This document shows, piece after piece, positions 18,060 to 22,706 of a DNA stretch of 64,000 nt. The notes under the pieces are model-generated. The model was not told the DNA's origin, did no database searches, and worked only from the letters and a program-made list of their open reading frames with translations. Location: positions 1 through 64,000 of the forward strand of contig JBBCKI010000071.1 in NCBI GenBank assembly GCA_037190965.1, in the 5' to 3' direction. Numbering within the stretch: the first letter of the stretch is position 1; each line of letters opens with the position of its first letter. This DNA comes from Chthoniobacteraceae bacterium. Lineage in GTDB: Bacteria; Verrucomicrobiota; Verrucomicrobiia; Chthoniobacterales; Chthoniobacteraceae. A program made the position numbers and the translations under genes.

Positions 18060-19229
18060 ATGCGCACCCGGCAGTTTCTATTTCTCGTCCTGATCGCGGG
18101 ACTCGTCCTGATGCGGGAATCGCGCATCGAGCCGCTTGCCTCGGTGGAAAACAGCTTCGCCTCCTGGCTGAACACCAACGCCAAACGGGAGCCGAGCCGC
18201 GCGCCGCTCGTGCTGTTGGAGATCACCGATGATGATTTGAGCGCCACCCCGTGGCCATGGAGCCCGTTCGACTTCTCGTTAGCCGTCAGTGCCGCCCTCT
18301 CCTTCGAGCCTGCCGTGCTGGCGCTGGAGCCGGTGCTTTCGTGGGAGGCCGCCAAAACCGAGCAGATCACGCTTCTTCATCACCAGCTCCTGAGGGTTCC
18401 AAAGCTATTGCTTGGAGCGGATCTGGGAGTTTCGAGCACCCTCCTCCCGCCGCTGCAGGAGATCCCCCTGCTCCCGCATGTGAAGGGCGAGACCGGCGCT
18501 TTGCCCGAGTACAATGCCGTCGCGCAGCGTCCGGTGGAAGAATTGCGCCTGGCTGGCGCGCTCGGCTTTGAGAATCTTCCAGGGCGCGGTGAAACCCTTC
18601 AGAGAGTGCCGCTGGTCTTTCGCTATTATGGACACGTCGTGCCGTCCTTCGTGTTGCAGGCGGCGATGCTCTGGTACGGGGTGACGCCCGATGAAGTCAC
18701 GGTCGTCCCGGGGGGATATGTGGCGCTGGGAGAGGCCGTTCGTATCCCGATTGACGCGCGGGGAACTTTTGCCGTTGATTTCGGCATCCCGATCACGCGG
18801 CTTTCCGTGGGCGATCTGATACTGGCCGCCGCACAGGATCAGAAGCCTACAGCGGGAGCGGCCCCGCGCATCAAGGGCTCGTTCGCTCTCGTCGCGCGCA
18901 ATGATGGCGCTTCGCGCATGCTTCACTTTGCCAATCGCTCCGGTTCACGCGGGGAGTTCTTTGCGCAATCGATCGCGACGATCCAGCAGCAGGCGTTCAT
19001 CCGGCGCATCCCGGTTTACGGCGAAGCATGCATTATCGCCGCGGGAATCGCCCTGGCCTGGTATGCCTCGCGGAAAAGCAGGCTCGCCACCGTCACGCTG
19101 GGCGTCGCCGCCGTCGCCGCCTACATGCTTATCGCCCTCGGCATCTTTGCCGGAACCTTCATCGCCCTGCCGCTGCTGCTGCCGGTGGGTCTGATCGGGT
19201 TCGTCGTGCTTCTCCGGTTAATTGACTAA
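18060..19229 (+). CDS. CHASE2-like sensor domain membrane protein lacking an output domain
   Basis: N-terminal TM, LLEITDDDL...PWPW, GFENL, RVPLV, IPIDARG, C-terminal TM helices then stop. Confidence 0.7.
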   Translation: MRTRQFLFLVLIAGLVLMRESRIEPLASVENSFASWLNTNAKREPSRAPLVLLEITDDDLSATPWPWSPFDFSLAVSAALSFEPAVLALEPVLSWEAAKTEQITLLHHQLLRVPKLLLGADLGVSSTLLPPLQEIPLLPHVKGETGALPEYNAVAQRPVEELRLAGALGFENLPGRGETLQRVPLVFRYYGHVVPSFVLQAAMLWYGVTPDEVTVVPGGYVALGEAVRIPIDARGTFAVDFGIPITRLSVGDLILAAAQDQKPTAGAAPRIKGSFALVARNDGASRMLHFANRSGSRGEFFAQSIATIQQQAFIRRIPVYGEACIIAAGIALAWYASRKSRLATVTLGVAAVAAYMLIALGIFAGTFIALPLLLPVGLIGFVVLLRLID

Positions 19230-19687
19230 GCGGGCTTGGTGCAATCTTTGCAAACGCCGTAAAAGGCGAATTCGTGATGGAGCCCGCGAAATCCGTATTC
19301 TTCTTCCAACTGGCGTTCCAACCGGGCTCCCGGGCAAGTGATTTGCAGATTTTGGACCGTCGCGCATTCCGTGCAGACGACGTAATCATTGTGCTGCTCT
19401 CCCGGCATTCCCATCGTGAAGAACGGCGGCTTCTCCCGAACCGTGATTCGGCGGACCAATCCGATCTCCTCCAATTTGACCAGAAGCCGGAAAACCGTGC
19501 TCGGGTTGCAAAGCTCATTCAAAGGGGAGGAATCGCTCAACGTCCTCCAGTTAACCGGCCCGGATTGCGCCAAAAACCCCAGCAATGCATCGCGCGCCCG
19601 GGTCTTTCGCAGACCTTTGTCGTGGCAATACTGAAAGGCCCACGCCAGCCTCTCGGCTTTCGCGGCTGCTGTTTTGTTCGGCTTCAC
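19226..19687 (-). CDS. Fur-family transcriptional regulator (Zur-like)
   Basis: GLRKTRAR, STVFRLL..LEEIGLV, HNDYVVCTEC, FYGVCKDC. Confidence 0.88.
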   Translation of the reverse strand: MKPNKTAAAKAERLAWAFQYCHDKGLRKTRARDALLGFLAQSGPVNWRTLSDSSPLNELCNPSTVFRLLVKLEEIGLVRRITVREKPPFFTMGMPGEQHNDYVVCTECATVQNLQITCPGARLERQLEEEYGFRGLHHEFAFYGVCKDCTKPA

Positions 19688-19753
19688 TCTCCGGCAACTA
19701 TGACATCGCCGAATTTAAGGATCAACCCCCTTTGAGGCGTCGCCCGCGGCCTT

Positions 19754-20989
19754 TTACTCCGCCTCCAGCCATGCCGGAAAGGGATCGACGAACCGCTCAG
19801 GCCAAAGCGTCGGCCCTGATACCATTTCCTGATCCGTCAGAAGGCATTCGTTCAACCGATCCAGCATCGCTTTCTTCGGGAGATTCTGACCGATAAACAC
19901 CAGCTCCTGGCGCCGGTCCCCGAAAGGCTCCAGCCATTCCCTTTCGATGCTTTCAAGCATGGCTTCATCCTCCGGCCAGCAATCGCGTGGGGTCGTCGCC
20001 CACCAGAATCCCACCGGTCGATGCTCTGCCGTACCCCCGGCCTGCGACCATTGCCCAATGATGTCATGCCGTGTGGCCAGCCAGAAAAACCCTTTCGAAC
20101 GAAGCAACCCGGGCCACTCCTCGTTCATGAAATTCCAAAAGCGCTCGGGATGAAACGGTCGGCGGCCGCGAAACACGAAGCTCGAAATCCCGTATTCTTC
20201 CGTTTCCGGGGTGTGTGTTCCGGCCAGCTCTTTGAGCCATCCTGCCGAAGCCTGCGCTTCTTCCATATCGAAAAGACCCGTATCGAGAAGTCGGCTCAGC
20301 TCGACACGACCCCGAATGCAGGGGATGACGCGCGCTCCCGGGTTCAGCTTCTGCAAGATCATCATGAGATCGGATAGCCGTTCCGGTTTTGCGAGATCCG
20401 CCTTGTTGATCACGATGACGTTGGCGAACTCGATCTGACTGATCAGCAAATCCGCCAAAGAACGTTCGTCACCCTCGCCTGCTGCCAGTTCGATTTCCGA
20501 TAGCAGATCGGTCGATTGAAAATAGGCCAGAAAGCTGGATGCATCCACGACCGTCACCATGGTATCCAGACGGGCCAGGTCGTTGAGTCCCCGGCCTTCC
20601 TCATCCAAAAAGGTGAAGGTCTGCGCAACGGGGAGCGGCTCTGAAATTCCGGTGGATTCGATGAGGAGGTAGTCAAAACGGCCCTCCGATGCCAACCTGG
20701 AGACCTCTTTCAGCAGGTCGTCACGAAGGGTGCAGCAGATGCATCCATTGCTCAGTTCAACGAGTTTTTCCTCCGTCCGGCTGAGGCGGGAGTCGCCGTT
20801 GCGGACTAGGGAGGCGTCGATGTTCACTTCGCTCATGTCGTTGACGATTACTGCAACTCGCTTGCCTTCACGATTTGCCAGGATGTGGTTGAGCAACGTC
20901 GTTTTCCCCGCCCCGAGAAATCCGGAAAGGACCGTTACAGGAAGGCGCGCGTTAAGTTTCAAGGCCGGTGCCGAGGGAGCAGAATTCAT
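19754..20989 (-). CDS. COG0523/CobW-family G3E GTPase, zinc metallochaperone (YciC/ZigA-like)
   Basis: [58 protein letters not shown]. Confidence 0.95.
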
Positions 20990-20992
20990 GGC

Positions 20993-21703
20993 TTAAGGAA
21001 TATTGGCAGGGATCGCCGCAGGGTTGATCCCTTTGTCGAAGATTTTTTTCATGGACGCGGCGGAGATGTTTTCCACATGCCCGTCCATATAGAGATAGTT
21101 TGCAGAGCCTTTGAGCCGATCCGCTGCCCTCACGCCCGTGCGATGCCGGTCCGGCTCGGTGTCGTCGAGAAAAGCATACCATGTTAGCCAGCCATCAGAG
21201 TGGGTATGATCATGCGCGGGGCCGGGCTTTTTCTTATCTGCCGAGAGAATAAACATGGAAAGAGTCGCTGATGGGACCGGCAGGTTGGACAAACGGTTGA
21301 AGGCGGGATCATCGAAGACGAGATTGTTGAGCACATAACTCGTCGCCTTTTGCTTCAGGATGTATTGCTTCCGTTCACTTTCGTCGGCCGGGCAAACCCT
21401 GACGCTGTCAAGGTTGCCCAGGTAGTCGGAAAGAAGATAGATCCAGCTTTCTCCGATATAGCGAATGCCCGTTGTGTGGCTCGTCGGGGGAAGGCAGCCG
21501 TCGTGATCGCAGGCGTAGAGAGACAATGCCATGCCGATCTGGCGCATGTTTGACAAGCAGGCCGCCCGATTCGAAGTCATCATGCTGTGCGAGATGACAC
21601 TCAGAATCAATCCCGCCAAAACAGCGATGATCCCGCAGGCCAGCATGACCTCCAGCAAGCTGAAACCACGCCTCTTTTCCTGTGAAAACACGACAAGTGA
21701 CAA
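20993..21703 (-). CDS. Prepilin-type N-methylation protein with H-X9-DG-like C-terminal motif
   Basis: RRG|FSLLEVMLACGIIAVLAGLI, CLSNMRQIG, CPAD, HDHTH, DRH...ANYLYMDGHV. Confidence 0.9.
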   Translation of the reverse strand: MSLVVFSQEKRRGFSLLEVMLACGIIAVLAGLILSVISHSMMTSNRAACLSNMRQIGMALSLYACDHDGCLPPTSHTTGIRYIGESWIYLLSDYLGNLDSVRVCPADESERKQYILKQKATSYVLNNLVFDDPAFNRLSNLPVPSATLSMFILSADKKKPGPAHDHTHSDGWLTWYAFLDDTEPDRHRTGVRAADRLKGSANYLYMDGHVENISAASMKKIFDKGINPAAIPANIP

Positions 21704-21717
21704 TGCTTAAAAATGGA

Positions 21718-21746
21718 CCTCCACGACCCTTTTCAGGCCGTGGAGG
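21718..21746 (-). terminator. Intra-operon stem-loop after the PEP-CTERM gene
   Basis: CCTCCACG...CGTGGAGG stem, followed on the minus strand by TCCATTTTT. Confidence 0.55.
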
Positions 21747-21758
21747 CGCGAGGCATCA

Positions 21759-22595
21759 CTAGCGAGCTGGCCGCCGCCTGATGCGGGAAACCAGCACCCC
21801 ACCCACGGCCACACCGATAAGCGCCACCGAGGAAGGCTCGGGAATCACATGAAAACCAAAGGTGCCCATCGCGGTCTTTTCTCCATCGACGAGATGAGTT
21901 CCGCTGAATTCGAGCGTCAGCTCATAATACCCCGGAGCGGTAAACGCCCAATTGTAGTGTTCGTGACCGCCGGCGTAGAGTCCGTAGGAATTTTCACCCC
22001 ATGGTCCGCCGTCGCCCTCGTCAGGGTAAGTCGCCCCCAAAGTCAAAGAAGGAGCATAGGTGGAGAAGAGAAGATCCGTGAGTTGAGAGCCACCCGCGTT
22101 TGAATTGTAGAGAGCGAAATGACCGGGTCCGGTCCAGCTCTTCAATGTGATAACGATGGTATCACCAAGCCACTCGCCTAGTCCGATTTCCTCCGCTCCC
22201 AATCCAAGATCCGGCTTTCCGGCGGCAGTAGCTCCGCTTTTAGGGAGAACCCAGATACTCTCTCCGGCAGCGACACCCAGCACGGGCACTCCGGTCGGAT
22301 CAAAAGAAGCGGAGGCAGGACGAGCCTGTGGCAGATTGGGAACAATAGCTACAAGGTCTTCCGGTGCATATTCCGACTGCGGAGGCGGCGTCTGCCCATC
22401 CACTTTAGCCCCGAGGCCAACATGCCAGTGAGGGATCAATTCGCCATCCTCATAACCAATCCCTATGTCGGCATGGCCGAGGGAATAGCTGCTTTGTGCG
22501 ACTGCATTGGAAGCGGCAGTCATGAGGGTGAAAGCCCCTACCAGGACCGAGGCCGCCAAGGTTCGAACTTTTCGTGAATCGAGGGTGAGTTTCAT
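21759..22595 (-). CDS. PEP-CTERM surface protein with a His-rich domain resembling TIGR03769/choice-of-anchor M
   Basis: Signal peptide; GHADIG, PHWHV, WVLP, GPGHFALY, GGHEHYNWAFTAPGYYELT; IPEPSS, TM and RIRRR. Confidence 0.88.
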   Translation of the reverse strand: MKLTLDSRKVRTLAASVLVGAFTLMTAASNAVAQSSYSLGHADIGIGYEDGELIPHWHVGLGAKVDGQTPPPQSEYAPEDLVAIVPNLPQARPASASFDPTGVPVLGVAAGESIWVLPKSGATAAGKPDLGLGAEEIGLGEWLGDTIVITLKSWTGPGHFALYNSNAGGSQLTDLLFSTYAPSLTLGATYPDEGDGGPWGENSYGLYAGGHEHYNWAFTAPGYYELTLEFSGTHLVDGEKTAMGTFGFHVIPEPSSVALIGVAVGGVLVSRIRRRPAR

Positions 22596-22658
22596 AGACT
22601 AAGGTTTTTTCGATCGTTGAGAACGGTGACGAAGATCGCCGTTTCAGCGCGATAGAAA

Positions 22659-22706
22659 ATGCAATCGACTTGCATGTCAAATATAATTGCAATCTATTTG
22701 CATTAT
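22659..22706. promoter_or_regulatory. Tandem TGCAA-N5-TTGCA palindromes (candidate Zur/Fur boxes) adjoining a TTGACA -35 on the minus strand
   Basis: TGCAA-TCGAC-TTGCA (22660-22674) and TGCAA-TCTAT-TTGCA (22688-22702); TGTCAA at 22675-22680 reads TTGACA on the minus strand. Confidence 0.75.

Follow-up and report, generated by a model that had tools for sequence, protein, structure and literature searches.

A four-gene operon in a verrucomicrobial genome links a predicted surface zinc-binding protein to a prepilin that, in related loci, alternates with a zinc-receptor-like gene. The operon lies on the minus strand of contig JBBCKI010000071.1 of a Chthoniobacteraceae bacterium (assembly GCA_037190965.1; 4.2 Mb, 97% complete), in the window analysed here (positions 1 to 64,000, i.e., 64,000 nucleotides). 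It encodes a choice-of-anchor-M PEP-CTERM protein (gene 1), a DHxH prepilin related to the H-X9-DG/DUF1559 family (gene 2, hereafter the pilin), the zinc metallochaperone GTPase ZigA (gene 3) and a divergent Fur-family regulator (gene 4). We regard the operon with high confidence as a zinc-starvation module. The pilin subfamily almost always neighbours a choice-of-anchor-M gene, and beside such genes it alternates with a gene resembling the zinc receptor ZnuD; probably, the pilin fills this receptor's role in some way. A first-pass annotation of the region had already proposed that these genes respond to zinc starvation and combine a surface protein of the metal-binding type with a pilin carrying His motifs, and this proposal held up in the analyses of motif conservation, gene neighbourhood and operator.

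Linkage to choice-of-anchor-M genes and alternation with a ZnuD-like receptor

Among 301 genomes drawn across the phylum, choice-of-anchor M was found in 18 and the core pilin in nine, all of them among the 18. The conserved neighbourhood expected in the first-pass annotation was recovered, as 46 of 48 pilin genes were located at most 2.5 kb from a choice-of-anchor-M match, with coordinates taken from the listed matches, which do not include every choice-of-anchor-M match. In 80 metagenome pilin loci a choice-of-anchor-M gene was present in 70, and in 30 out of 30 of those with a length of at least 8 kb; ZigA-like (22), Fur-family (19) and ZnuA-like genes (16) occurred there as well. Of 111 genomes from the host's order, 38 gave a pilin-profile match at E≤1e-8, and in 14 of them the match reached E<1e-50.

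The first 19 loci that were read contained either the pilin or a ZnuD-like TonB receptor beside their choice-of-anchor-M genes. This set was extended by 70 choice-of-anchor-M-bearing genomes from two order-level draws to a total of 88, which includes a few genomes with choice-of-anchor-M matches below the cut-off; receptors were accepted at 1e-40 in the 301-genome draw (three candidates scored per genome) and at 1e-25 in the order-level draws. By linkage to the choice-of-anchor-M gene, the partner was the pilin in 42 genomes and a ZnuD-like receptor in 33, both in none and neither in 13, while at the level of whole genomes 37 had only the pilin, 36 only the receptor, six both and nine neither. 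In the loci read, the receptor stood under the same operator box as the pilin modules, and it is absent from the host. No ZnuD-like receptor was found in the 25 pilin loci with more than 3 kb of sequence on both sides. The two partners were swapped within the genera g25 (three pilin, three receptor) and g176 and within the families f9, f15 and f19. Within g25, one and the same set of neighbours, a His-rich porin-like gene and a choice-of-anchor-M pair, surrounds the pilin in locus L174 and the receptor in L175 and L036. In a mostly unresolved tree of 23 PEP-CTERM partners, including one row (G081) that is probably a wrong open reading frame (ORF), the pilin and receptor labels changed four times compared with 4.6-4.7 times after shuffling, i.e., they did not cluster. 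The verrucomicrobial receptors scored 155-438 bits against NF038289, below its cut-off of 950, and are therefore termed ZnuD-like only. It is this alternation that constitutes the real support for an uptake route involving the pilin.

The DHxH pilin

Gene 2 (20993..21703, minus strand) encodes a protein of 236 aa that matched TIGR02532 (21.1 bits, cut-off 16.3), with GFSLLE at residues 13-18, a G/F cleavage site and the glutamate at position +5. We located HDHTH at residues 164-168, DRH at 185-187, DGH at 207-209 and a further histidine, H76. From 194 homologues found, 120 were aligned, in which H166 was present in all, D165 and H168 in 119 each and H76 in 117; E18 (111), H187 (107) and H209 (103) were less conserved. 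The HDHTH motif singled out in the first-pass annotation thus persists in homologues as DHxH, its first histidine (H164) being variable. DHxH occurred in 96 of 98 core pilins of the fetched loci, whereas among the 58 prepilin-like ORFs of the host genome only two have [DE]HxH. Judged by these residues, the pilin defines a conserved DHxH subfamily.

Its direct assignment to the H-X9-DG family was not borne out by TIGR04294 (16 vs 19); here, and likewise for DUF1559 (PF07596; 17.1 vs 23.3), the score stays below the cut-off because an insertion of 10 residues in the H-X9-DG tract places H187 and D207 19 residues apart. Relatives in L041 and L046 keep the canonical spacing of 9, and PF07596 is present in most of the 120 homologues listed. 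With the H-X9-DG/DUF1559 family the pilin shares the prepilin N terminus and the SYxxN and NYLxxDGH elements; it differs from it by the DHxH motif, H76, the insertion and its specific regulatory and genomic context. The structure model (pLDDT 95.8) contains a 50-residue pilin helix (16-66). Foldseek comparison of the model with PDB returned weak pilin matches, none at E≤0.001, and no match for the head; sequence searches of PDB matched the pilin helix only, and nothing beyond generic DUF1559-like clusters came from the ESM Atlas. Scanning the genome contigs with the single pilin as query yielded one locus. Every named homologue was verrucomicrobial in a search to which Planctomycetota did not belong; Cerasicoccus frondis and Opitutaceae TAV5 are among the carriers of the pilin. 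Compared with the ORF of 236 aa, the public gene call P0001 (217 aa) lacks 19 residues, which fits a later start that would drop the prepilin cleavage motif.

Few orphan families in bacteria of the PVC group are as large as the H-X9-DG/DUF1559 prepilins; the family is described as being of unknown function, with 68 paralogues in P. limnophila (PMC10632474). For one of its members, the DHxH subfamily now supplies a regulator, a partner, a likely ligand and a known class of proteins with which it alternates, and makes the family's function directly testable by way of a simple zinc-limitation phenotype in cultured verrucomicrobia. Full-text literature searches, in which subscription journals are mostly not covered, gave no account of a prepilin under zinc regulation or of an alternation between pilin and receptor.

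Operator boxes and regulator

Two palindromes with a TGCAA-N5-TTGCA core lie upstream of gene 1 and come in addition to the features of the first-pass annotation. The first (22685..22705, 29.7 bits) is a predicted Zur-type box, followed at a distance of 28 bp by the second (22657..22677, 22.0 bits). A TTGACA hexamer (22675..22680, minus strand), which is seen in the sequence between the boxes and overlaps them, is a possible -35 element; a consensus scan of the operon region revealed no full sigma-70 promoter. The genome contains five exact cores, one of them that of the first palindrome, compared with zero to six at other spacer lengths. Exact-match counts alone were therefore rejected as proof of a box, and a matrix with held-out tests was used instead. 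Trained on 24 sites from relatives and on none from the host's own genome, this matrix ranked the two palindromes first and second in 4.2 Mb, the next site scoring 18.5 bits. In the 80 metagenome loci, which were held out, it found 60 sites in 41 loci vs 0.2 expected from local shuffles, and 8 of 20 further genome loci had sites.

In relatives the palindrome, often doubled, is placed upstream of homologous genes, of ZnuD-like receptors (L036, L039, L043 and L044) and of the gene for the type B ribosomal protein L31 (L042). L31B and FolE2 are markers of Zur regulons. In L180, a 27-bit box separates a DHTH pilin from a true ZepA gene (NF040463, 267 bits). A palindrome located upstream of the zepA gene of Luteolibacter yonseiensis was flagged before as a putative Zur site (PMC10957091), and in the upstream region given in the supplement of that paper we read by hand the same core and a prepilin start on the opposite strand; these two cases were not counted as independent. 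The occurrence of the box before L31B, ZnuD-like and ZepA genes therefore points to Zur and zinc, and likely defines a verrucomicrobial Zur box. Taking the matrix ranking together with the inventory of TonB receptors, the operon is the only strong target of the box in the genome, in which no zinc receptor was found.

Gene 4 (19226..19687, minus strand) gave a weak match to the FUR model PF01475 (35.5 bits, cut-off 23.1) and has two structural CxxC pairs, CTEC at 105 and CKDC at 146. No NCBIfam equivalog passed its cut-off; NF008646, which we take to be the enterobacterial-type Zur model, gave 21 vs 167 bits. As read from the gene and its surroundings, this regulator is likely Zur and would repress the operon. 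Gene 3 (19754..20989, minus strand) was identified as the COG0523 GTPase ZigA by NF038288 (630 bits, cut-off 600), with CxCC and P-loop motifs and GCICC at residues 82-86.

The choice-of-anchor-M protein

The product of gene 1 (21759..22595, minus strand; 278 aa) matched choice-of-anchor M (NF038134, 76.2 bits, cut-off 55) and TIGR03769 (35.5 bits, cut-off 30.9), and its tail matched the PEP-CTERM model TIGR02595 (19.3 bits, cut-off 16), with PEP at residue 252 and the PEP-TM-basic arrangement. GHAD occupies residues 40-43, HWH 56-58 and GHEH 210-213, so that all motifs of the first-pass annotation, in this protein as in the pilin, ZigA and the regulator, were located. H41, D43, H211 and H213 were each found in all 42 aligned choice-of-anchor-M proteins, and H58 in 38 of them; the HxD (H41-x-D43) and HxH (H211-x-H213) motifs bracket about 165 residues. 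The structure model shows a confident beta-rich domain (pLDDT 86.9), and neither a sequence search nor Foldseek of the model gave a PDB match at E≤0.001. We predict a surface or secreted zinc-binding protein. Weak matches to the actinobacterial anchored-repeat ABC models TIGR03772 and TIGR03773 were observed as well. Proteins of 1200-2500 aa with several tandem choice-of-anchor-M domains are encoded in L181 (9900-16814) and in the genomes G550, G475, G516 and G326.

Two known systems come close. ZepA (All3515) of Anabaena, which occurs alongside Zur-regulated TonB-dependent transporters, is a Zur-repressed zinc-binding PEP-CTERM exoprotein, proposed as zinc donor to an outer-membrane receptor (PMC10957091). 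The system resembles the present one in Zur-type control, signal peptide and PEP-CTERM, and COG0523 and Fur-family neighbours, but the gene 1 protein comes from a different family: identity with ZepA was rejected, as NF040463 gave no match at E≤0.01 and HxD...HxH replaces the H-X2-9-H-F/Y-H of ZepA. A pilin was not found discussed in the part of the ZepA account consulted. ZnuE, ZnuF, ZnuG and CmrA of Corynebacterium diphtheriae share, by motif, the HxD and HxH bracket (about 150 residues there), surface anchoring and repression by Zur, and ZnuE-dependent growth under low zinc requires the His residues of HxD/HxH (PMC12445094). Here, PEP-CTERM sorting replaces the sortase or membrane anchor of the corynebacterial proteins, the operon has no ABC transporter, and an outer-membrane step is needed. 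By motif, the corynebacterial HxD/HxH-type domain is thereby extended to PEP-CTERM proteins of Gram-negative bacteria.

Transport and assembly genes elsewhere in the genome

The host genome encodes at least 45 prepilins, and the searches gave five secretin matches and four PilT-family ATPases over the cut-off; several secretins occur along with PilB/GspE-like ATPases. PilT drives pilus retraction. The genome further encodes one exosortase (contig C42) and one TonB receptor, which is not ZnuD-like and lacks a box; a ZIP transporter gave no match in it. No ABC transporter or TonB receptor gene adjoins the operon, as noted in the first-pass annotation, but the argument drawn there from the missing ZnuABC is weak: two ZnuA-family ABC loci, both lacking a box, are present on other contigs, one of them beside a gene that is MntR-like by inspection, and a ZnuA-like gene was found in 16 of the 80 pilin loci. 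Because of these loci, passage through the inner membrane is not the step that the pilin takes over, and its role as a substitute for ZnuABC was rejected.

The ZnuA-family ABC locus at C59:27812-32081, which is free of an operator box, contains permease genes resembling TIGR03943/SO_0444, as judged by likeness to L173. In L173 itself this permease pair sits inside the pilin operon.

Proposed route and competing explanations

What we observe directly is the gene content, the conserved motifs, the operator, the linkage of the pilin to choice-of-anchor-M genes and its alternation with the receptor. From these, we suggest the following route. Low zinc would lift repression by the adjacent regulator, upon which the PEP-CTERM HxD/HxH protein would be displayed or released and capture zinc. 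Zinc, or the zinc-loaded protein, may then be handed to the DHxH pilin, which would itself bind zinc and be built as a minor subunit into a retractile type IV pilus. On retraction, this pilus would carry zinc or the loaded protein through a secretin of the outer membrane and would thereby stand in for a ZnuD-like TonB receptor. An unlinked ZnuABC-type transporter would next take the zinc across the inner membrane, and ZigA would allocate what has been imported; the direct transfer of metal from the pilin to the cytoplasmic chaperone that was proposed initially found no support. We put this full route, in which the pilin of a Zur-repressed module brings zinc through a secretin instead of a ZnuD-like receptor, forward tentatively, as a proposal that might well be correct yet falls somewhat short of being probable. 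If the pilin does replace ZnuD, pili would be an outer-membrane route of metal import, which would explain the scarcity of TonB receptors in many such genomes. More speculative, though quite possible, is the generalization that a retractile type IV pilus with a substrate-specific minor pilin at its tip or along its shaft imports zinc across the outer membrane interchangeably with a TonB receptor, and that the H-X9-DG/DUF1559 pilins of PVC bacteria then constitute a general pilus-based nutrient import. The zinc pilin would in that case be its first tractable test, in a host with at least 45 prepilins and a single TonB receptor. Within the same phylum, the type IV-like MUL2 pilus of Akkermansia, serving the use of mucin and fucoidan (as described in PMC13174399), is a precedent in that it connects a pilus-like system with the acquisition of nutrients. 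In contrast to the DHxH pilin, MUL2A is archaeal-like, has glycans as substrate and a proposed role in attachment; it is not of the H-X9-DG/DUF1559 type, and no metal is involved according to that description.

Several observations weigh against this route. A Fisher test of the alternation (p=2.5e-10) overstates it because the genomes are related and lack independence. In the unselected draw of 301 genomes, the overlap of zero between nine pilin and 44 receptor genomes is near the 1.3 expected by chance. Nor is the exclusion complete: the six genomes with both genes hold them unlinked, in metagenome locus L133 a ZnuD-like N terminus (E 1e-53) is divergent from the pilin, and L087 contains a weak receptor fragment in a pilin locus. 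TonB receptors are generally fewer on the pilin side, with a median of 3 in 36 pilin-only genomes vs 9 in a subset of 12 out of the 36 genomes that have only the receptor. In favour of the route, at least one TonB receptor was nevertheless present in 35 of the 36 pilin-only genomes, and six had 8-20 other TonB receptors. Concerning regulation, six loci from the host's own order had no box at 15 bits or more, and the regulator has QHNDY in place of the His tract typical of most relatives in the alignment, so that its identification as Zur depends on context. For the corynebacterial HxD/HxH residues, zinc binding in vitro was inconclusive (PMC12445094). Porin or porin-like genes flank the pilin in L064, L070, L090, L168, L169, L173 and L174, in L171 the module is followed by PCuAC and SCO, which are copper genes, and in L042 it comes after FeoB-like genes. 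In L164 and L048, a related module with DHFH/EHIH pilins is accompanied by a TonB receptor that is not of the ZnuD kind.

Some of these observations would fit a pilin that is never assembled, acting as an inner-membrane-anchored, high-affinity periplasmic trap or relay for zinc that enters passively via porins, with no energised receptor needed. Such a role appears unlikely to us, despite the OprB-family and His-rich porin-like genes beside several pilin loci, the ZnuA-like gene in 16 of 80 of these loci and the fact that assembly has been shown for none of the host's prepilins: the cleavage site and the glutamate at +5 are kept and the model has the full pilin helix, the host operon lacks a porin, and the His-rich porin-like gene is found beside receptors too (L036, L175). 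The pilin might alternatively have an outward function, as a pseudopilin dedicated to one cargo in a type II-like secretion machine, by which the choice-of-anchor-M proteins would be exported or displayed. Its near-obligate linkage to their genes and the several secretins and PilB/GspE-like ATPases would agree with that, as would the outer-membrane crossing of PEP-CTERM proteins being an open matter (PMC10957091). As 33 genomes link the same kind of surface protein to a receptor and lack a linked pilin, choice-of-anchor-M export needs no such pilin; moreover, alternation with an importer is not predicted by an export role, which we hence consider improbable.

The alternation itself could be historical, reflecting two independently spreading zinc islands or the loss of ZnuD in receptor-poor lineages, with the pilin serving adhesion, biofilm formation or storage under zinc starvation. 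This is consistent with the relatedness of the genomes, the receptor-poor pilin genomes, the co-occurrence of both partners in L133 and six genomes, and the second choice-of-anchor-M gene, which in receptor loci tends to be about 550-600 aa long, compared with about 360-430 aa beside the pilin. It is a rather unlikely explanation, given that the swap recurs in two genera and three more families, that in g25 the same neighbours surround either partner and that pilin and receptor labels are unclustered on the partner tree, largely unresolved as it is. Least likely, and by our estimate very improbable, is a module for copper, nickel, cobalt or iron, or for several metals. Besides the divergent metal site of the regulator, its evidence consists of PCuAC/SCO, MerC, CusF-like and FeoB-like neighbours, each in single loci, whereas the box or the neighbourhood is common to ZigA, L31B, FolE2, ZepA and ZnuD-like genes. 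We accordingly retain zinc uptake involving the pilin as the preferred explanation.

Operon layout and related modules

The coordinates of the four co-oriented genes were reproduced, all on the minus strand and with intergenic gaps of 55, 3 and 66 bp. The flanking genes, a PEP carboxylase gene upstream and a convergent membrane-protein gene downstream, are unrelated to the operon; the regulator gene (19226-19687) shares 4 bp with the 3' end of this convergent gene (18060-19229), which had no family match. The regulator's divergent metal-site tract is partly common to L181 and L182. Between genes 1 and 2, a hairpin of 13 pairs followed by a T-run (21717..21747, minus strand) could be an attenuating terminator, a weak reading because terminator-like sites across the region were not in excess (six vs 5.1 in shuffles).

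A clustered zinc regulon was found at L042:2393-14061, with type B L31, COG0523, a flavin oxidoreductase, FeoB-like, the pilin and choice-of-anchor M, then S18 and FolE2. At L049:8677-8746 (G005), in the vicinity of nitrogenase genes, two operator boxes together with a weak remnant of choice-of-anchor M possibly represent a decayed module. The sister module, combining DHFH/EHIH prepilins with other His-bearing PEP-CTERM proteins, was present in L048, L163-L167, L171 (5885-6652) and L179; it may serve another metal. In some of these loci it includes a small HWxxLQxxAW membrane gene, and in L171 it is arranged head-to-head with the DHTH module. His/Asp-rich porin-like proteins are encoded beside zinc modules at L174:8288-9709, L175:3580-4929, L036:4442-5764, L168:7669-8583 and L169:2248-3309 and are candidate zinc porins; the three tested had no Pfam match. 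Finally, a fused MFS/spermidine-synthase-like gene recurs in metal modules (L037:5862-8243, L038, L040, L071-L075, L165 and L171).

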